From assembly GCF_003334335.1 (NCBI RefSeq), contig NZ_QOWQ01000021.1: 64,000 bases of DNA; one strand, given 5' to 3'. The notes under the pieces are model-generated. The model searched no databases. It worked only from the letters and a program-made list of their open reading frames with translations, and had not been told where the DNA came from. Made by a program: the position numbers and the translations under genes. This stretch comes from Escherichia coli. Its GTDB lineage: Bacteria; Pseudomonadota; Gammaproteobacteria; Enterobacterales; Enterobacteriaceae. Positions 9,161-17,674 of this stretch are shown in pieces. The first letter of the stretch is position 1, and every line of letters begins with the position of its first letter.

Positions 9161-9290
9161 GGCTTACTCTTCCCGCTTCGCTATGAGGTTATAAACCCCG
9201 CTGATCGGGTCATACCATATGCTGCGTGGCAGCAGCTTCTGGAAGTAGCGCGGATCTGGCATTACGGTTGACTGTTGTGACATGTCACAC

Positions 9291-9491
9291 CTAACTATTT
9301 GTTTTCCGTAATGGAGAAAAAATGAGGCTCTCTTTAGATAATTTGAGGGTTGGTGAAACTTTAGATACCGCTTCCTCAATTCTTTCAGCCATTGCAACTG
9401 AGGGGCGCCTAAAACCCAGAGCCATCTGGTTCAGGTATGCAACGCTAGTCCCAGATAACTGTGCCAGCCGCCTCCATTCATCCGCGCTCAT
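9291..9491 (-). CDS. Cro-like HTH regulator (start taken at the internal Met, MSADEW...)
   Basis: HTH-like segment LAQLSGTSVAYLNQMALGFRRPS; divergent from the cI-like gene across a 138-bp operator region. Confidence 0.6.
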   Translation of the reverse strand: MSADEWRRLAQLSGTSVAYLNQMALGFRRPSVAMAERIEEAVSKVSPTLKLSKESLIFSPLRKTNS

Positions 9492-9549
9492 GACTCCTCT
9501 GATTGAGAGCAATACACTGGACATAAAAAACCCCATACTGTATTGGTTA

Positions 9550-9572
9550 TTAGCAACGTGCTAACATTAGCA
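9550..9572. promoter_or_regulatory. Candidate operator: overlapping inverted repeats TTAGCA-acg-TGCTAA-ca-TTAGCA in the cro/cI divergent region
   Basis: Perfect 6-bp half-sites in inverted orientation; a related site TTAGCA-ttt-TGCTAt lies at 10118-10136 upstream of the next HTH gene. Confidence 0.55.
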
Positions 9573-9629
9573 CATGAGATCACAATACAGCAATACGCTG
9601 TAAAGCATTTAGCTAACAATGAGACAAGC

Positions 9630-10085
9630 ATGGAAATCAAAGATATTCGCTTAAAAAATCTACAGACGGTAATCCAACGCAGCGGCTTAACCCAGACAGA
9701 TCTGGCGTTAAAATGTGAGATATCACCCTCACTTATAAGCCAAATAATGACTAAGCGCAGAAATATGGGAACTGCTCTCGCTAGAAAACTCGAGGGGCGA
9801 CTGAGCCTATCAGAAGGATGGTTTGACATCCCCCACTCATTGCTGGATTCCCCATGGCATCTAGCTAAAATGAGGGAAAAGACTGGTGAGACCACTATTG
9901 ATGAACAGCAACTAACTAAAAGAGAGACTCGACTTATTGAGTTATTCAGACAAATGCCTGAAAGCGAAAAAGACAGGATAATCAGTGAGTTATCTGAAAA
10001 GAAACGTAATTTTGACAAACTACTTGATGAGCTAATGGCTGTTAAAGCATCAAGAATGCCGATCGACAAAGACGAAAATGAATAA
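9630..10085 (+). CDS. cI-like immunity repressor (XRE-family HTH, no S24 peptidase domain)
   Basis: HTH LTQTDLALKCEISPSLISQIM; C-terminal half is acidic/coiled and lacks the Ser-Lys autocleavage motifs; start at ATG 9630 (the track ORF begins upstream at 9543). Confidence 0.7.
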   Translation: MEIKDIRLKNLQTVIQRSGLTQTDLALKCEISPSLISQIMTKRRNMGTALARKLEGRLSLSEGWFDIPHSLLDSPWHLAKMREKTGETTIDEQQLTKRETRLIELFRQMPESEKDRIISELSEKKRNFDKLLDELMAVKASRMPIDKDENE

Positions 10086-10188
10086 TAAATACAACGCACT
10101 ATAAAAAAAACAGCAAACATTAGCATTTTGCTATTGTCAAGAATAACGCATAGCGCTACATTCACCTCAGCAAGTAAAAACAAGTGAG

Positions 10189-10641
10189 GTGAATGTAATG
10201 TTAAATGATAAACATGACTCTTATTCCGTAAACTCTCTGTTGATTTGTGCTCAAGCGGCACTATTAGGCGGTACCGCTTCAAACCATGACGTCATCAACC
10301 TCTTAGATGTTGCACAAGACATCATCTCTTCAACTATGAATTCCTTTACAGATAGTAGCGCTCCCGGCGCTAATGTTGATTTATTTACCAAAGAAGTTAG
10401 CGCTAGTAATTCCCCAGCATTATCTTTCGGTCAACGTATTCTCCAAGCGCGTAAATCAGCAAGTCTTCAACAACATCATATTGCCAGCGGTGCTGGAGTG
10501 ACTGTTCAGGCTGTTTCGTTATGGGAAAATGACTCAGCAATTCCTACTTGCGACAAAATTATCCCATTGGCAAATCTTCTTGGCTGCGATCCAATGTGGT
10601 TACTGACTGGTGCTTATAAACAAAATCAGGAGGAAGCATAA
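10189..10641 (+). CDS. Second HTH (XRE-family) protein with an N-terminal domain of unknown function
   Basis: C-terminal HTH FGQRILQARKSASLQQHHIASGAGVTVQAVSLWE; exact start uncertain. Confidence 0.55.
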   Translation: MNVMLNDKHDSYSVNSLLICAQAALLGGTASNHDVINLLDVAQDIISSTMNSFTDSSAPGANVDLFTKEVSASNSPALSFGQRILQARKSASLQQHHIASGAGVTVQAVSLWENDSAIPTCDKIIPLANLLGCDPMWLLTGAYKQNQEEA

Positions 10642-10642
10642 G

Positions 10643-10834
10643 ATGAAAATGTTCAAAGGCCTCACCAACGAACCGGAGACAGCTTTTCATCACATTGCCG
10701 TACTGCTTGAAGCGGGGTTAATCATTTCGGCTTCCGGTGATGAAGAATGTGATGAACTTTCGGATGATATCTTTTTACTGGCACAACAATACGCCAGAAG
10801 CGCATGCGATGCATTTAAGGAGCAAAGAACATGA
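10643..10834 (+). CDS. Small hypothetical protein (63 aa)
   Basis: AGGAGG 7 nt upstream of the ATG; stop overlaps the next start. Confidence 0.5.
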   Translation: MKMFKGLTNEPETAFHHIAVLLEAGLIISASGDEECDELSDDIFLLAQQYARSACDAFKEQRT

Positions 10835-11022
10835 TAACTCCATTAAATATTCTTGAGGAAGTGGCGGCACAAATAAAAGAGAATACATCAATGCTTGAAT
10901 TTATATTTAAGAATTCGCCCGACCAAGGAGAGACAGACGATTATTTATGCTGTCTCATTCGCTCCATGAATAAGACCTGTGAAATGGCTTACGAGTATAT
11001 AGAAACACTACGCAACGAATAA
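10831..11022 (+). CDS. Small hypothetical protein (63 aa)
   Basis: Start overlaps the stop of the upstream gene. Confidence 0.45.
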   Translation: MITPLNILEEVAAQIKENTSMLEFIFKNSPDQGETDDYLCCLIRSMNKTCEMAYEYIETLRNE

Positions 11023-11206
11023 AGAACACTCAGTAAAAAATCACACATAAAAACATGACGGCCTCTGGTCGTGGATTTCCACAACCAGAAAATAATGGTG
11101 ATGCATGAAAAATAGAAACGCTTATAAAACCGCATTATTAATGGCTAATGCAGGATACTGGTCAGTTGCAATACTGTTTCTCAGAAAAGCATACGGGAAA
11201 TAACAA

Positions 11207-11566
11207 ATGGCATGTACAACCATTTATAAAGATCGTCGCCGCATGGTAACAGCGGCACTCCGGCGGATGCAACGTAAAACAGGTAGTAATCTGCTCGTCG
11301 TTGACCTCCCGGACGGAGAAATAACAACGATAGAAATAACTGAACAGTTCATGAACCAGTTGTTATTACGATTTGAGGGTCTTACCCGTGTTGAATATGG
11401 ACGGACGGAAGGAGAAGCAACAATCCGTACCGCATACCAGAATGCCATCGGTATTAATCAACACACGGAATATCTCACTGAATCAGGGAAACTGATAGTG
11501 GACGGCCTTTTAAAAGAGGTTGTTGACTACGTAAAAGAGAAATATATCAGTGGAGGAATTAACTGA
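11207..11566 (+). CDS. Hypothetical phage protein (119 aa)
   Basis: ORF in the plus-strand accessory operon. Confidence 0.5.
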   Translation: MACTTIYKDRRRMVTAALRRMQRKTGSNLLVVDLPDGEITTIEITEQFMNQLLLRFEGLTRVEYGRTEGEATIRTAYQNAIGINQHTEYLTESGKLIVDGLLKEVVDYVKEKYISGGIN

Positions 11567-11746
11567 TGTCTGATTTATCCCCTCTTATACACGAAAAAGT
11601 ACAGATCATTATGACGATTGAAAATGGCCAAGTCACAGGTGTCTGCAAAGTCCGCGATGGCTAGCTGATTGCCAGCATGGATACATTCATACGGCTGGCA
11701 GAAAGAGCGGGGTATCAGATAACAGCACCAGCTCAGGAGGAAACCA

Positions 11747-11965
11747 GTGGCATTAACAGCAACACGCATTCCTGAGCGGATCCACCGGCAGGCATTGCAG
11801 GTCCTGTTGTTGTACCGATGCCGACGGATATTTCCGCATCGGATACAGCGCACCGGATATCTCAGTCTGAAGGTTAACCGTCGCTGGCGGCTGTTATCGA
11901 AAGACGACGGCCGGAACTGGGAAGTAATGAGTCATGAACGTTATTCGGGAGAAATAAAGAAATGA
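11747..11965 (+). CDS. DUF4222-like small phage protein (GTG start)
   Basis: RWRLLSKDDGRNWEVMSHERY motif, also present in a paralog in the second prophage (61966-62193); AGGAGG upstream. Confidence 0.55.
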   Translation: MALTATRIPERIHRQALQVLLLYRCRRIFPHRIQRTGYLSLKVNRRWRLLSKDDGRNWEVMSHERYSGEIKK

Positions 11966-12360
11966 TCGACAACCGCACCGCCAGCGCCAGCGCCATTAAC
12001 CAGGCATTACAGAAACATGATACACCCGTCGGCCCGTTATTTTTTGTAACACGCCACGGAAGAACAAAAAAATGCCTCACTCGAAAAACGGCAATTCGTT
12101 ACCTGGCCTTCTTTATGACCACCCGCGCTTTTGAACGTTCAGGATTCCGACAACGCCATCCTGACAAGCGTTTTATCTTCAACGGGAATGAAATATGGAA
12201 ACGTGGAGAATCAACCACAGAGTATACCCGCGCACACCAGCGAACAATCAGACGACTGCGCAGACTCATCGCCAGGAAACAGTATACAGAAAAATGGTTC
12301 AGAAAATATGACACATGGAGCGCCGGATATTACGAACTGATGGCAACAAAACCATTCTGA
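11962..12360 (+). CDS. Hypothetical basic phage protein (132 aa)
   Basis: Start overlaps the upstream stop; Arg/Lys-rich. Confidence 0.5.
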   Translation: MIDNRTASASAINQALQKHDTPVGPLFFVTRHGRTKKCLTRKTAIRYLAFFMTTRAFERSGFRQRHPDKRFIFNGNEIWKRGESTTEYTRAHQRTIRRLRRLIARKQYTEKWFRKYDTWSAGYYELMATKPF

Positions 12361-12420
12361 CGTAAACGAAATTAACCATGACGCAATTAAATAAGGCAAG
12401 CCGAATACATCAGGAGGACC

Positions 12421-12609
12421 ATGAACATTTATTTCAGAATAGTTATATCACTGGCAATTATCACATGTATTTACGGATTAATCGTTCCGGCCCTCATATC
12501 AATGAAGGATACGGTAGCAGTGATTTCTGGCTTTGCTCTGGCGTGTCTGACCCCGCCCTGCATTTATGCCATTTATAAGGGTCTTTCTTTTTCTAAGGAT
12601 AAAAGATGA
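12421..12609 (+). CDS. Small two-helix membrane protein (62 aa), translationally coupled to the SPFH gene
   Basis: Two hydrophobic segments; its stop overlaps the SPFH start (ATGA). Confidence 0.55.
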   Translation: MNIYFRIVISLAIITCIYGLIVPALISMKDTVAVISGFALACLTPPCIYAIYKGLSFSKDKR

Positions 12610-13433
12610 AAAAATTACTTTTTGCTTTAGCCCTTGTTCTGCCGACCATTGGCCTTGTCGGTTGCGATCGCGTTGAGCCTGGTAATGTGGGCATCAAAGT
12701 AAACAAACTGGGCGACGATAAAGGCGTCGGTGAAGTGGTCGGTGTTGGGCGCTACTGGACGGGATGGAACACTGAGGTTTACATCTTCCCGACCTTTAAG
12801 CAGATGAAGACCTACGATGATCCATTCAGTTTCCAGATGAGTGACGGTACAACCATCGGCTATCACATCGGCGTGGCCTACAAAGTTGATCCATCCAAAG
12901 TTACCACAGTCTTTCAGACCTACCGCAAAGGCGTGGACGACATTACCGACACCGACCTGCGCCAGAAGATAGCCGACGCACTCAACCGACTGGCCAGCAA
13001 AATGACCACCGACAAATTTATCGACGGCGGCAAGTCTGAGCTGCTGGATGCAGCTCTTAAAGACATTCAGGAAGAAATGACGCCCATCGGTATTCAGGTA
13101 ATGAGCCTCTCATATGTGGGTAAGCCGGAGTACCCGCCTACTGTTATCGACAGCATTAATGCCAAAGTCACGGCGAACCAGAAAACCCTGCAACGCGAGC
13201 AGGAAGTAAAACAGCGCGAAGCGGAAGCCAACATGTTGCGCGCGGAAGCTGCCGGACAGGCAGATGCGATTCGCACAAAAGCCCAGGCCGAAGCCGATGC
13301 TATTCGTTTACGCGGTGAAGCTCTGCGCCAGAACCCCGGTGTTATGGAGCTGGAAGCCATCAACAAGTGGAACGGTACACTGCCGCAATACATGACCAGC
13401 GGTGCCAACACACCATTTATTCAGGTTAAGTAA
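12606..13433 (+). CDS. SPFH/band-7 (prohibitin/HflKC-like) lipoprotein with C-terminal coiled coil
   Basis: Signal peptide with lipobox LVGC; SPFH-like core; Ala/Glu/Arg-rich heptad region QREAEANMLRAEAAGQADAIR. Confidence 0.7.
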   Translation: MKKLLFALALVLPTIGLVGCDRVEPGNVGIKVNKLGDDKGVGEVVGVGRYWTGWNTEVYIFPTFKQMKTYDDPFSFQMSDGTTIGYHIGVAYKVDPSKVTTVFQTYRKGVDDITDTDLRQKIADALNRLASKMTTDKFIDGGKSELLDAALKDIQEEMTPIGIQVMSLSYVGKPEYPPTVIDSINAKVTANQKTLQREQEVKQREAEANMLRAEAAGQADAIRTKAQAEADAIRLRGEALRQNPGVMELEAINKWNGTLPQYMTSGANTPFIQVK

Positions 13434-13476
13434 TACATATGCCCGGTATTACACGCCGGGCTGTCTGGAGATAAAA

Positions 13477-14226
13477 ATGAATATTGTAACCATCAACAAC
13501 AAACAGTTTCCGGTAATCGAATATCGCGGTCAGCGTGTTGTGACATTTGCAATGATTGATGACGTCCACCAGCGCCCGGAAGGTACCGCCCGTGCTGCGT
13601 TTAACCGCAACCGTTCTCACTTTATCGAAGGGGTGGATTTTCTTGAAATGACTGCGGACGTAATACGTACGGAGTCACTTTCTGATGCCTTTGCCGCGCG
13701 AACTGCCAAAGGGATCATTCTTTTCGAGTCTGGTTACCTGATGTTGACGAAGCCTTTTAACGATGCTCTTGCATGGCAGGTTCAGCGCGAACTGGTTAAC
13801 AGCTATTTCCGAACTCATGCGCCGCTGACGGAAATGGAGATGATCGCTGCAATGGCCGCCGATGCCGTTCGCCAGCAGAAGCGCCTGAGTCATGTTGAAG
13901 AGAAGATCGAAACGGTCACCAAAGCTGTGGAGAACATCAAACGCGGCACAATGCGCACTGGATATGTCGGTTACCGCCAGGTGGTAGCCAAAAGCGGAAT
14001 GAGTGACGCCAAGTGTCGGAATCTGGTCAACGCCTACCACATCCCTACCGACACGCACGAATTTATGACTCCGGACGGTCTGTTGTCTCGCAGGGCTGTC
14101 GTCGAGCTTGAGACATTTATGGCGGCGTTCCACCAAATGATGTCAGAGGCTGAACCACGCGGCACACGCTGGTATCACCCGAAGATGGGGCTTTTCCAGG
14201 TAATCGGATGGGAGGATAAAGCATGA
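13477..14226 (+). CDS. Bro-N/ORF6N-domain protein (antirepressor-like)
   Basis: N-terminus INNKQFPVIEYRGQRVVTFAMIDDVHQRPEGTARAAFNRN resembles the Bro-N/ORF6N family; start taken at ATG 13477. Confidence 0.55.
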   Translation: MNIVTINNKQFPVIEYRGQRVVTFAMIDDVHQRPEGTARAAFNRNRSHFIEGVDFLEMTADVIRTESLSDAFAARTAKGIILFESGYLMLTKPFNDALAWQVQRELVNSYFRTHAPLTEMEMIAAMAADAVRQQKRLSHVEEKIETVTKAVENIKRGTMRTGYVGYRQVVAKSGMSDAKCRNLVNAYHIPTDTHEFMTPDGLLSRRAVVELETFMAAFHQMMSEAEPRGTRWYHPKMGLFQVIGWEDKA

Positions 14227-14792
14227 TCATCCAGTCAAAACTTATTCGCGCCGCTCTGGTGTGCGCTGCTAAAAACGACGTTCGTTATTACCTGAACGGT
14301 CTTCACATCACGCCAAAACATATTGAGGCAACCAATGGTTCCGTGGCACTGCGCATGACTCACGGCATCCGGACGAAGAAAAACATCATTGTCCAGTTCG
14401 AAGGTGGCGTCCCGGCCAAAGCCGAAACGACAGAGCTGATTTTTAGTAAAGAGCCGATCGCTGTTCATCGCGACCAGTTTCAGCGCCGACTGTCCATTAC
14501 CGGCATTAAATTGGTGGACGGTTGTTTTCCGGATTTGGAACGCATCATTCCGAAAAAATTTGACCTCTGTACACACCCGGTGATCCAGGCGGGTTACCTG
14601 AGTTATCCAGAGAAGATGTTTGGTCGTGAGCGTAAATTTATTCCCGTCCAGTTACGTCCCTCCGGTGACGGGCAAGCGGTCAGAATTCAGTTTGATTCCA
14701 TCATCAACTCAATGTATGGCAATCCTGAATTTGTTGTGATGCCTTGTCGTGATCATGGCGATTTCAATGTGGCTCAGGAGCATCCGGAATGA
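14223..14792 (+). CDS. Hypothetical phage protein (189 aa)
   Basis: ORF with start overlapping the upstream stop. Confidence 0.5.
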   Translation: MIIQSKLIRAALVCAAKNDVRYYLNGLHITPKHIEATNGSVALRMTHGIRTKKNIIVQFEGGVPAKAETTELIFSKEPIAVHRDQFQRRLSITGIKLVDGCFPDLERIIPKKFDLCTHPVIQAGYLSYPEKMFGRERKFIPVQLRPSGDGQAVRIQFDSIINSMYGNPEFVVMPCRDHGDFNVAQEHPE

Positions 14793-14824
14793 AAATCGAA
14801 TACCAGGACGCCGCAGGAGGTGAA

Positions 14825-14911
14825 TCAATGAGCTGGCCTGATGCAATCGTAACTCTGGGGATGGTATTCGCAGTAGCGTTTGTTGTGTACTCGATTTGTC
14901 GATGGGGATAA
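14825..14911 (+). CDS. Candidate small single-TM peptide (27 aa, MSWPDAIVTLGMVFAVAFVVYSICRWG)
   Basis: AGGAGG 7 nt upstream of the ATG; hydrophobic core; below the ORF-track size cut-off. Confidence 0.35.
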   Translation, partial: SMSWPDAIVTLGMVFAVAFVVYSICRWG

Positions 14912-14915
14912 CCAC

Positions 14916-15158
14916 ATGTTCGCTTTGATTCAACGCGGGCAGATATACACCGATAGTGCTGGCTACCCGATAAAAATTGTTCGCTGCATAAACAACACTG
15001 TGTTGTACAGAAGAATGGATGGGCGAACACAGTCAGTAAAAATAAACGATTTCAATGAACTGTTTGAACGGATTGATCACCAGGAATACCGACAAATTCT
15101 GGCAGAAACAGAGCAGGAAGCTCATCTGAAAAAATTACGGGCCATGAAAAGGAAGTAA
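14916..15158 (+). CDS. Hypothetical small phage protein (80 aa)
   Basis: ORF from MFALIQRGQIY. Confidence 0.45.
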   Translation: MFALIQRGQIYTDSAGYPIKIVRCINNTVLYRRMDGRTQSVKINDFNELFERIDHQEYRQILAETEQEAHLKKLRAMKRK

Positions 15159-15316
15159 AGAATGAATAAAGCATTTGAACAATGGGTCCACCAGCGTTAC
15201 GGCAATCGCTATGACCTGACACGAGATGTTGACGGTTTCTACTGTCGTGAAATTGTGAAACGAATGTTTGAAGTGTGGTGCCACTGCCGTGGGCTGAGTG
15301 TTGTGTGAGGTAATGC

Positions 15317-15553
15317 ATGGGCAATGTGATTCAACTGGCTCCCAATGAATGGGTTTGTGAAAGCGTTCTAATCGCAATTACCGGGCTCAAACCAGGCACA
15401 ATTCTTCGGGCCCGGAAAGAATGCTGGATGGTTGGAAGAGAGTATATTCACGTATCACCAGACGGTAATCCAAAGCCTTCCAGTGAATGTATGTATAACA
15501 GAAAAGCAATAGATGCCTGGGTCGCTTCAATGAAAAACAAACAACCTGGGTGA
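15317..15553 (+). CDS. xis: Excisionase-like DNA-binding protein
   Basis: 78-aa ORF directly upstream of the integrase on the same strand. Confidence 0.55.
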   Translation: MGNVIQLAPNEWVCESVLIAITGLKPGTILRARKECWMVGREYIHVSPDGNPKPSSECMYNRKAIDAWVASMKNKQPG

Positions 15554-15608
15554 TTTAATGCCATGAAGTATGTAAGCTCGTATCGCTCTTGGGCGTCTGG
15601 AGGTATCA

Positions 15609-16922
15609 ATGGATAAAGTCAAATATCCAACAGGCGTCGAAAACCACGGCGGCACATTACGCATCTGGTTTAATTTTAAAGGTAAACGTGTCAGGGAAAA
15701 TCTTGGTGTCCCTGACACTGCCAAGAACAGGAAGATCGCCGGGGAACTGCGGACATCGGTATGTTTTGCCATCCGCACAGGAAGCTTTGATTATGCTGCA
15801 CAGTTCCCTGACTCCCCCAACCTTCAGGCTTTTGGGGTAAGTAAAAAAGAAATTACGGTGAAGGAACTTGAAGAAAAGTGGCTGGATCTGAAACGAATGG
15901 AAATCTCTGCAAATGCATTCAATCGCTATGAATCCGTTGCAAGAACGATGGTTTCGAAAATTGGAGGCAGTAGACTGGTGTCATCGGTAACCAAAGAGGA
16001 ATTGCTGTATATCAGGAAAGATTTGCTAACCGGGTATCAGAATTCAACGAAAAACAAAGCAGCAGCAAAAGGACGGAGCGTCGTTACTGTAAATTATTAC
16101 ATGACGACAATCGCTGGAATGTTTCAGTTTGCTGCAGATCACGGTTACTTAGAAGCAAATCCCTTCCAGGGAATTAAGCCTCTTAAAAGAGCCAGGGCAG
16201 AGCCAGATCCGCTAACTCGTGACGAATTTATTCGCCTGATAGATGCTTGCCGACATCAGCAGACGAAAAACCTGTGGTCATTGGCTGTGTACACAGGAAT
16301 GCGTCACGGTGAACTGGTCTCCCTGGCCTGGGAAGATATCGATCTGAAGGCAGGAACAATTACCATCAGGCGCAATTATACGAAACTTGGTGAGTTCACT
16401 CTACCGAAAACTGAAGCAAGCACAAACAGGGTTGTGCACCTTATCCAGCCCGCTATCAGTGTCCTGAAAAATCAGGCTGAAATGACAAGACTGGGTAAGC
16501 AGTACAACATCAAGGTGCAACTACGTGAATATGGACGTTCAGTGAACCATGAATGTACTTTCGTGTTTAACCCTCAAGTGGTTAGAAAAAGCGAACAGGT
16601 AGGTTTTGTCTACAAAGTCGATTCTGTAGGTGACTCATGGGAAACAGCCATTAAGCGTGCAGGGATCAGGCATCGAAAGGCATACCAGTCACGACACACT
16701 TATGCGTGCTGGTCATTATCTGCCGGAGCAAACCCAAGCTTCATTGCCAGCCAGATGGGCCATGCAAGTGCCCAGATGGTATTCAATGTATACGGAGCAT
16801 GGATGACTGACAGCAATGCAGAACAGATCGCAATGCTGAATCAGAAGCTGACAGATTATGTCCCAATGATGCCCCATAGTCACCAAAGTGACACCAGAGG
16901 CTTATTAAAATCAGTAAGTTAA
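15609..16922 (+). CDS. int: Tyrosine-type phage integrase
   Basis: GGAGG RBS; catalytic-region motifs TGMRHGEL, HRKAYQSRHT, VYGAW; ends at the prophage/yecE junction. Confidence 0.85.
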   Translation: MDKVKYPTGVENHGGTLRIWFNFKGKRVRENLGVPDTAKNRKIAGELRTSVCFAIRTGSFDYAAQFPDSPNLQAFGVSKKEITVKELEEKWLDLKRMEISANAFNRYESVARTMVSKIGGSRLVSSVTKEELLYIRKDLLTGYQNSTKNKAAAKGRSVVTVNYYMTTIAGMFQFAADHGYLEANPFQGIKPLKRARAEPDPLTRDEFIRLIDACRHQQTKNLWSLAVYTGMRHGELVSLAWEDIDLKAGTITIRRNYTKLGEFTLPKTEASTNRVVHLIQPAISVLKNQAEMTRLGKQYNIKVQLREYGRSVNHECTFVFNPQVVRKSEQVGFVYKVDSVGDSWETAIKRAGIRHRKAYQSRHTYACWSLSAGANPSFIASQMGHASAQMVFNVYGAWMTDSNAEQIAMLNQKLTDYVPMMPHSHQSDTRGLLKSVS

Positions 16923-16939
16923 TCCTTAATACCCGTCAT

Positions 16940-17674
16940 GTTAACTGCGTGGAGGGCAACACCACGCTTTACGCCCTGCCGAAACCCGAGGTTGTCCTGC
17001 GCTGGCGTGAACAGACCACAGATGACTTCCGCTTCTGTTTTAAGTTTCCGGCGACCATTTCGCATCAGGCAGCATTACGGCATTGCGATGATTTAGTGAC
17101 TGAATTTTTGACCCGCATGTCACCGTTGGCTCCGCGCATTGGGCAATACTGGCTGCAACTGCCTGCCACATTCGGCCCACGGGAGCTGCCTGCGCTTTGG
17201 CATTTTCTCGATTCTCTCCCTGGCGAATTTAATTATGGTGTGGAAGTCCGCCATCCACAGTTTTTCGCCAAAGGGGAAGAGGAACAAACGCTTAATCGCG
17301 GTTTACATCAGCGCGGCGTTAATCGGGTGATTTTAGACAGCCGCCCGGTTCATGCAGCATGTCCACACAGTGAAGCTATTCGCGACGCTCAACGAAAAAA
17401 ACCTAAAGTTCCGGTACATGCTGTACTGACGGAGACAAATCCGCTGATCCGTTTTATCGGTAGTGATGATATGACGCAAAACCGGGAATTATTTCAGGTC
17501 TGGTTACAGAAATTAGCGCAGTGGCATCAGACCACTACGCCTTATCTTTTTTTACATACGCCAGACATTGCCCTGGCCCCGGAACTGGTACATACCCTGT
17601 GGGAAGACTTACGTAAAACGCTTCCAGAGATCGGAGCAGTTCCGGCTATTCCACAGCAATCTTCTCTTTTCTGA
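16940..17674 (+). pseudogene. yecE: yecE (DUF72) 3' portion; first ~30 codons displaced by the prophage junction
   Basis: Translation from ...NCVEGNTTLYALPKPEVV matches YecE from about residue 30; no native 5' end in this window. Confidence 0.7.

Follow-up and report, generated by a model that had tools for sequence, protein, structure and literature searches.

The question raised by this locus is what a bacteriophage does with an SPFH protein that is paired with a very small membrane protein. The locus is a two-gene cassette at positions 12421-13433 of a 64,000-nucleotide stretch of Escherichia coli DNA (assembly GCF_003334335.1, contig NZ_QOWQ01000021.1), hereafter the window. The left part of the window covers the end portion of a lambdoid, phiP27-like prophage integrated next to yecE. 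The first gene of the cassette encodes a 62-amino-acid membrane protein, here called the hairpin protein, and the second encodes a 275-amino-acid SPFH lipoprotein. The SPFH identity of the second gene is already annotated in public records. Where other E. coli genomes have identical copies, the Prokaryotic Genome Annotation Pipeline (PGAP) labels its product an 'SPFH domain-containing protein', and the small open reading frame (ORF) a hypothetical protein. What is added here is a conserved, sometimes fused hairpin partner that is not an NfeD protein, an extracytoplasmic, lipid-anchored architecture, and a set of lytic-phage orthologues that speaks against the idea of lysogeny control. High-resolution structures of SPFH cages (HflK/C, prohibitin, flotillin, stomatin, erlin) are recent, and the effect of these cages on the enclosed membrane is debated. 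A minimal two-gene system, with one lipid-anchored SPFH protein and a 62-amino-acid partner, is unusually tractable for asking what an SPFH cage is for. Taken as a structural description alone, a lipid-anchored SPFH protein with a hairpin partner is very probably correct. The preferred reading of the pair is a self-contained phage SPFH membrane-scaffold system that acts early and either insulates the membrane of the infected cell or excludes phages. This reading is offered tentatively, with rather more doubt than confidence.

The SPFH lipoprotein and its hairpin partner

The features of the cassette are the following.

12412-12417 (+), Shine-Dalgarno sequence AGGAGG of the hairpin gene, read in the sequence, 3 bases 5' of the ATG at 12421
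12421-12609 (+), hairpin gene, 62 amino acids, from the ORF list, with two hydrophobic helices and a match to phrog_1130
12606-12609 (+), ATGA overlap of the hairpin-gene stop with the SPFH-gene start, read in the sequence
12606-13433 (+), SPFH/Band_7 lipoprotein gene, 275 amino acids, from the ORF list, Pfam Band_7, phrog_200, AlphaFold and Foldseek
12654-12668 (+), lipobox L17-V18-G19-C20 followed by Asp21 (position +2), from the sequence, in agreement with the pattern [LVI][ASTVI][GAS]C
12669-13229 (+), Band_7/SPFH domain, residues 22-208, from Pfam and AlphaFold, a beta-rich SPFH1 followed by an alpha/beta SPFH2
13137-13331 (+), single long Ala/Glu/Arg-rich helix, residues 178-242, from AlphaFold, aligned with the HflK helix
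13368-13385 (+), C-terminal signature K-W-N-G-x-L-P, from family alignments

The geometry of the ATGA overlap fits translational coupling of the two genes. Of 79 close IMG/VR relatives, 74 have an intact 62-amino-acid hairpin ORF with the same four-base overlap. These relatives were gathered with a 12-sequence alignment and are all 92-100% identical. Among them, the ratio of nonsynonymous to synonymous polymorphism (pN/pS) is 0.25 in the hairpin frame and approximately 1.5 in both other frames, and the hairpin ORF is therefore a real gene. By the same contrast (approximately 1.5 versus 0.25), a 66-amino-acid ORF at 12378-12578 (+), which lies over the hairpin gene in another frame, is rejected as a shadow ORF. 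The conservation of the ORF and the pN/pS values put the two-gene arrangement far beyond chance. The hairpin protein matches phrog_1130 ('membrane protein') with an E-value of 1.5e-23, and the 275-amino-acid protein matches phrog_200 ('lipoprotein') with an E-value of 1e-114. An overlap of 4-20 bases is also found in P88, phiE125, phiEaP8, SPSP and the metagenomic loci L093 and L094. A -1 frameshift that would fuse both ORFs was rejected for this locus by eye, as a TAA lies at 12600-12602 in the SPFH frame and no slippery site follows it. No Rfam family is matched in 9000-17000 on either strand. An earlier note on this DNA had described a 62-amino-acid two-helix protein that overlaps a 275-amino-acid lipoprotein by ATGA at these positions, and the ORFs and the LVGC-Asp lipobox bear this out.

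Pfam Band_7 (PF01145) covers residues 22-208 of the SPFH protein with an E-value of 8e-31 and spans model positions 2-176 of 176. The AlphaFold model, made with a 105-sequence alignment of 50%-identity representatives, has a predicted local distance difference test score (pLDDT) of 92.9 and a predicted template modelling score (pTM) of 0.75. In this model, a signal helix is followed by SPFH1 (residues 20-94), SPFH2 (96-175), a 65-residue helix (178-242), a short helix and a flexible tail. The signal helix is hydrophobic at residues 2-17 in both model and sequence. The 65-residue helix, which corresponds to the Ala/Glu/Arg-rich C-terminal coiled coil of the earlier note, is the predicted counterpart of the wall-forming coiled coil of SPFH cages. 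Across 105 family sequences, W255 and G257 do not vary, and P260 shows at least 90% conservation. By analogy, the K-W-N-G-x-L-P element may be a ring-closing or cap part.

In a Foldseek search of the PDB, only SPFH cage protomers are matched, near full length and over 240-300 columns. The matches are HflK (7vhq_E, 3.9e-14), erlin1/2 (9vvj), HflC, prohibitin, stomatin, flotillin, QmcA-YbbJ (1.8e-8) and the major vault protein. HflK is also the best PDB match by sequence (E-value 2e-4). The SPFH identity proposed in the earlier note stands on the Band_7 match, the confidence of the model and the matches to HflK, erlin, HflC and prohibitin, and the structure check for a missing SPFH fold did not refute it. 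Orthology to HflK or HflC is rejected. The protein scores 25.4 bits for TIGR01932 (cut-off 134.4), 23.4 for TIGR01933 (cut-off 159.4), 20.1 for NF008181 (cut-off 660) and 18.6 for NF008259 (cut-off 427). An HflK/HflC-type pair of subunits is rejected as well, as there is a single SPFH gene and a lipobox signal peptide replaces the N-terminal transmembrane helix. The phage protein shares SPFH1, SPFH2, the long helix and a periplasm-facing orientation with HflK/HflC (7vhq, 7vhp, 7wi3, 9cz2). It differs from them in that they have 16-20% structural identity to it, a helix as N-terminal anchor, a K/C heteromer and 419 and 334 amino acids, versus 275. Prohibitin and erlin are top fold matches whose SPFH domains also face away from the cytosol. 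Unlike the phage protein, they are eukaryotic, heteromeric and helix-anchored, and are 16-18% identical to it.

The orientation of the SPFH protein follows from its N-terminus. Asp at position +2 keeps E. coli lipoproteins in the inner membrane. This residue is also present in the phiP27, P88, RCS47, phiE125 and phiEaP8 copies, and the N4-like copy has Tyr at this position. A lipobox is found in 91 of the 150 best family representatives, and several other representatives have a plain N-terminal anchor helix without Cys. For such Cys-less anchored members, the predicted location can only be the cytoplasmic membrane. On the evidence of the lipobox, Asp+2 and the Cys-less members with a plain anchor helix, the SPFH domain is predicted to be extracytoplasmic. 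As with HflK/C, its placement at the outer surface of the cytoplasmic membrane is well supported by these sequence features.

The hairpin protein is hydrophobic at approximately residues 1-28 and 30-51, and its tail, KGLSFSKDKR, is basic. It was modelled in AlphaFold as a hairpin-SPFH concatenate that mimics natural fusions. In this model, helices 2-26 and 31-54 are joined by a four-residue loop, with a pLDDT of 83-94. The family shares a basic tail and the motif G-x-x-x-P-x-L-[IV]-S-x-x-x-[TSD], which spans the end of helix 1 and the loop and in which Pro23 and Ser27 are near-invariant. By the positive-inside rule, both termini are predicted to be cytoplasmic, and the four-residue loop is predicted to lie at the periplasmic surface by the SPFH1 domain. 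An NfeD-type partner, which the earlier note had raised, is not found. The 62-amino-acid protein has no Pfam match even at E-values up to 10, NfeD is found in 0 of 31 family members, and 62 amino acids leave no room for an OB fold.

The hairpin family is found directly 5' of the SPFH gene in phiP27, P88, RCS47, phiE125 (Burkholderia), Gekk3-15 (Aeromonas), phiEaP8 and vB_Eco_SPSP. The hairpin protein of the N4-like vB_Eco_SPSP matches PHROG 1130 with an E-value of 3e-20. In the rV5-like phage 4MG, the hairpin gene is upstream of the SPFH gene with one ORF between them. In L093 and L094, small overlapping two-helix ORFs accompany SPFH proteins that are only 31-36% identical. Co-occurrence in distant relatives was assessed from approximately 15 hand-checked loci and the fusion proteins, and is not a census. 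Among the best 150 of the 50%-identity representatives, at least 13 (by pattern) or approximately 18 (by eye) are in-frame fusions of 320-390 amino acids, in the order hairpin, linker, lipobox and SPFH. Examples are proteins P0151, P0157, P0159, P0163, P0169 and P0171 and loci L097-L100, and one fusion is identical in three assemblies. The lipobox is retained in the fusions, and signal peptidase II could cleave them into two chains. The fusions and the ATGA overlap suggest that the hairpin and SPFH proteins are produced 1:1 and function together. The identity, orientation and partnership of the pair are supported by computation.

Small two-helix ORFs are absent from the annotation at some loci. 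In PhiSH19 (Vi01-like), an unannotated 72-amino-acid ORF (L095, 2150-1932, minus strand; PHROG 11680) overlaps the SPFH start by 4 bases. The loop between its two helices is strongly basic, which places it in a different family, probably with the opposite topology. In phiEaP8, a 69-amino-acid hairpin gene (L005, 2307-2516) is unannotated in the RefSeq record. The SPFH coding sequence of this phage is annotated from 2447, and the start that gives a signal peptide and a lipobox is at 2501.

Distribution and genomic setting

SPFH homologues are present in 780 of 50,697 phage records (tblastn), 85 of which are at 60% identity or higher. Orthologues with 60-74% identity include the N4-like Schitoviridae phiEaP8 (66%) and vB_Eco_SPSP (62%). 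Distant homologues are found in Vequintavirinae (rV5-like), Ounavirinae (Felix O1-like), Bruynoghevirus (LUZ24-like) and phiCbK-like phages. Further distant homologues are found in Staphylococcus Kayviruses, Enterococcus phages, haloarchaeal viruses, and crAss-like and Lak phages. Most of these phage families are strictly lytic, and N4-like phages have no lysogeny decision to make. Because lytic phages keep homologues, the lysis-lysogeny decision does not appear to be the main purpose of the SPFH protein. A general role in the infection cycle is probably closer to its function than a lysogeny-specific one.

The SPFH gene is in an early or middle region in every Gram-negative case inspected. 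These positions include the lambdoid early-left operon, the P2 early operon and places beside RNA polymerase or recombination genes. In the P2-like P88, the overlapping pair gp11/gp12 is in the early operon between cox and A. In the N4-like phage, the cassette is at the left end of the genome between the gp17 and gp21 homologues, with annotated terminators on both sides. Gene position thus suggests that the pair is expressed early.

The setting of the cassette in the window is given by the following features.

9543-10641, repressor-type helix-turn-helix regulators, upstream of the cassette
12417-13462 (+), mosaic block common to phiP27 and Shiga toxin 2 (Stx2) phages, exactly two genes, from megablast (query 118-1163 of 12300-13500)
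13441-13461 (+), 7-bp GC-rich hairpin without a U run at the right edge of the mobile block, -14.4 kcal/mol, z -1.6, which is not significant and is not called a terminator
15609-16922 (+), integrase gene, on the same strand as the cassette, from the ORF list
16949, start of yecE, from the ORF list

This gene order places the cassette in the putative early-left operon, on the int strand and between the repressor-type regulators and int, as the earlier note had it. In annotated relatives, the cassette is likewise early-left. The lysis cassette of these relatives, with its own class II holin, is far off, past the replication and Q genes.

The cassette is found in 535 of 5426 complete E. coli genomes (approximately 10%), and 198 of the places are on plasmids. 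Stx2 phages are among its carriers, as are P1-like phage-plasmids. In one of the latter, RCS47 (L003, 3731-4775), the cassette lies between upl/plp and a tRNA-Met and DnaB-like helicase gene (ban), and the hairpin ORF, of 78 amino acids, is unannotated. P1 itself has tciABC at this position, which would make it an accessory locus that varies among P1-like elements. No empty site that joins both flanks directly is present in the 5426 E. coli genomes. In a sister prophage at yecE in E. coli 14EC047 (L101, 3495-4010), the hairpin ORF is intact and the SPFH gene is a 331-bp frameshifted pseudogene. This decayed copy suggests that the cassette is dispensable for prophage maintenance. As the mosaic edges and the pseudogene show, the two-gene module is accessory.

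In two unrelated lytic lineages, the SPFH cassette is directly 3' of a gene of the P22 gene-17 family (PHROG 1510, 'superinfection exclusion'). These are vB_Eco_SPSP (N4-like; L096, 1907-2221) and PhiSH19 (Vi01-like; L095, 2458-2138, minus strand). The proteins are approximately 105 amino acids long, acidic and without a signal peptide, and are 56% identical between SPSP and PhiSH19. The family is present in 326 phage records, including P22, and is absent from the window. At L100 (218-520), a PF24729 Acb2_Tad1_hairpin protein is encoded two genes upstream of a fused SPFH gene, amid small ORFs. This is a family of sponges that act against the cyclic oligonucleotide-based antiphage signalling system (CBASS) and Thoeris. 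The gene-17 and Acb2/Tad1 neighbours are weak evidence for a role, and these are typical accessory neighbourhoods.

Proposed mechanism and rival explanations

Export of the SPFH protein and its lipid modification at Cys20 are well supported by sequence and structure prediction, and Asp+2 should retain the protein in the inner membrane, in the outer leaflet. For cage assembly, early timing and biological role, we infer the following scheme. By homology with solved SPFH proteins, the SPFH protein would assemble through the long helix and the conserved C-terminal tail into a ring or dome that fences off a patch of the inner membrane. The hairpin protein, made in equal amounts, would sit in the membrane under the dome with only its short, conserved loop exposed to the periplasm, and would serve as a transmembrane anchor or as a caged client. 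Transcribed with the early-left operon, the pair would appear soon after infection or induction. It would then insulate the cytoplasmic membrane, which would stay sealed and energised until programmed lysis, or it would block competing phages.

A membrane-based exclusion role, which the earlier note had suggested, is plausible for proteins with these predicted features. The exclusion proteins T4 Imm and Sp, T5 Llp, TP-J34 Ltp and HK97 gp15 are small, are expressed early or from a prophage, and act on the cytoplasmic membrane from its outer side. They include both lipoproteins and two-helix proteins. The likeness is a functional analogy only, as these proteins have unrelated folds and no sequence similarity to the cassette and are lineage-specific, versus the many phage families that carry the SPFH protein. 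If exclusion or membrane protection is the true role, it is relevant to phage therapy, as homologues are present in therapeutic N4-like phages and Kayviruses.

Several points weigh against this membrane-scaffold system. Exclusion proteins known so far mostly have a narrow distribution, which the SPFH cassette family does not. The hairpin partner is missing in the Felix O1-like ST-3, and LUZ24-like, phiCbK-like and Vi01-like phages carry other small membrane proteins. Among the 91 representatives with a lipobox, the +2 residue varies (S in 20, T in 18, D in 14 and G in 11), so retention in the inner membrane may not be universal in the family or may depend on the host. A consensus scan, which weak signals could escape, finds no promoter-like site in 12361-12420 and no terminator-like site in 13434-13476. 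The distant Kayvirus homologue MbpS (approximately 25% identity) belongs to the same PHROG-level family and is also encoded beside a small membrane protein. It differs in its setting, the lysis module of a Gram-positive myovirus, and this location suggests another role in Kayviruses. The role proposed for MbpS is to aid secretion of the lysin Tgl (PMC7150955). In the literature, no functional study of a phage SPFH protein was found, and according to a phage paper of 2026, why SPFH proteins are present in phage genomes 'remains unclear' (PMC13239085). The prokaryotic SPFH surveys checked do not mention phage or lipoprotein forms.

Other explanations fit parts of the evidence. The phage SPFH ring could mimic HflK/C, capture or modulate FtsH, and thereby affect the stability of a cII-like regulator and the lysis-lysogeny decision. 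The closest solved relative, in both sequence and fold, is HflK, with the same periplasm-facing orientation. The early-left operon, to which the cassette belongs, is also the place of the FtsH inhibitor cIII in lambda, and one phage record labels its copy a 'putative FtsH membrane protease modulator'. The HflK/C cage encloses FtsH; nothing ties the phage protein to FtsH. The HflK/HflC scores (18.6-25.4 bits) are far from the cut-offs (134-660), there is one gene and not a K/C pair, and the anchor is a lipid and not a helix. N4-like phages carry orthologues with 60-66% identity, other lytic families carry distant ones, and homologues extend to haloarchaeal viruses, whose hosts, to our knowledge, lack FtsH. 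This explanation, which the earlier note had put forward by way of HflKC and FtsH, is disfavoured by the scores and by the lytic orthologues and is unlikely; modulation of FtsH for a purpose other than lysogeny is possible. To the same degree, it is unlikely that the pair is a clock for lysis, in which the hairpin protein is a holin- or antiholin-like pore former and the SPFH dome sequesters the hairpin protein, holins or secreted lysins. The hairpin protein does have the anatomy of a class II holin (approximately 60 amino acids, two transmembrane helices and a basic C-terminus), and eukaryotic SPFH proteins regulate channels. In Kayviruses, mbpS stands between the holin/endolysin genes and tgl, beside a holin-like small membrane protein, but the Kayvirus protein is only approximately 25% identical. 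P2-like, N4-like and rV5-like phages, like this prophage type, carry the pair in early regions, well away from the lysis cassette. The identity of the hairpin protein as a class II holin was considered and rejected, as it has no similarity to the prophage-type holin, PHROG 1130 is not a holin family and the location is early-left. A rather unlikely but somewhat better prospect is a near-universal phage membrane cage, so far overlooked, in which an SPFH dome on the outside of the cytoplasmic membrane surrounds a ring of hairpin proteins that acts as a gated pore or a plug for incoming DNA. If such a membrane-cage device is real, it would be a common mechanism for control of membrane potential or superinfection in bacterial, and perhaps archaeal, phages. 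No earlier SPFH cage would have had a client that is both minimal and defined.

The pair may also act in counter-defence, as a scaffold that shields the membrane or hides the infection from membrane-based immunity (pore-forming abortive-infection effectors or envelope sensors). This is suggested by the early accessory regions in which it is found, the gene-17 and Acb2/Tad1-hairpin neighbours and the many lytic carriers. The argument is one of guilt by association in neighbourhoods of mixed function, the cassette has no link to a particular host defence, and no known anti-defence family is matched, which makes this explanation quite unlikely. In PADLOC-DB, no defence model matches the SPFH protein, the hairpin protein or four neighbour proteins at an E-value of 0.01 or lower. 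Very doubtful is the explanation in which the SPFH protein is a lipoprotein of lysogenic conversion or virulence that is expressed by the prophage, released in vesicles and sensed by Toll-like receptors 1 and 2 (TLR1/2). The precedent is PM0222 (Pmorf0222), an HflK/C-like protein of 25-35 kDa from a Pasteurella multocida prophage, which is made in the lysogen, is present in vesicles and activates TLR1/2, and whose deletion attenuates virulence (PMC9872710). PM0222 is the only phage-borne SPFH protein found that has experimental data. It resembles the protein in the window, by description, as a prophage-encoded SPFH protein of similar size with lipoprotein-like behaviour, and its reported phenotype lies in host inflammation and in the capsule rather than in the biology of the phage. 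The presence of the cassette in Stx2 phages and in 535 of 5426 E. coli genomes agrees with a conversion role. Asp+2 predicts retention in the inner membrane and not release in vesicles, the family is common in lytic phages, which are unable to convert a host, and activation of TLR2 is generic to lipoproteins. Finally, the pair could be a captured housekeeping SPFH-NfeD operon without a phage-specific role. The layout is that of QmcA-YbbJ and YqiK-YqiJ (cryo-EM complex 8z5g), in which an SPFH gene likewise comes with a gene for a small multi-helix membrane protein, which is part of one assembly with the SPFH protein. In the cassette, too, the partner gene is adjacent and co-oriented. Those operons differ in having an NfeD/OB partner and an SPFH protein that faces the cytoplasm; here the partner is a 62-amino-acid hairpin protein, the SPFH protein is predicted to face the periplasm, and the pair is phage-borne and mobile. 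QmcA and YqiK are not exported or lipidated, unlike the phage SPFH protein. The purifying selection and the spread over very different phage types speak for a function in phages, and with the lack of NfeD in the 31 partner family members they make this explanation extremely unlikely.

Neighbouring genes

Three further genes on the same strand lie close to the cassette. For the ORF at 11747-11965 (+), the counterpart in identical prophages (L004, 5454-5672) carries the PGAP name 'ParE family toxin-like protein'. Directly downstream of the cassette, at 13477-14226 (+), is an ORF6N/anti-repressor-like gene (PHROG 1726, E-value 1e-70). A gene of an anti-repressor family in the early-left operon may bear on the control of induction. 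At 14223-14792 (+), a 189-amino-acid product matches PHROG 3007, 'RusA-like Holliday junction resolvase', with an E-value of 6e-65. This product also has weak matches to beta-clamp/processivity-factor families (PHROG 947, TIGR00663), and the RusA name is possibly mistaken. Strain E110019 has a frameshift in this gene.

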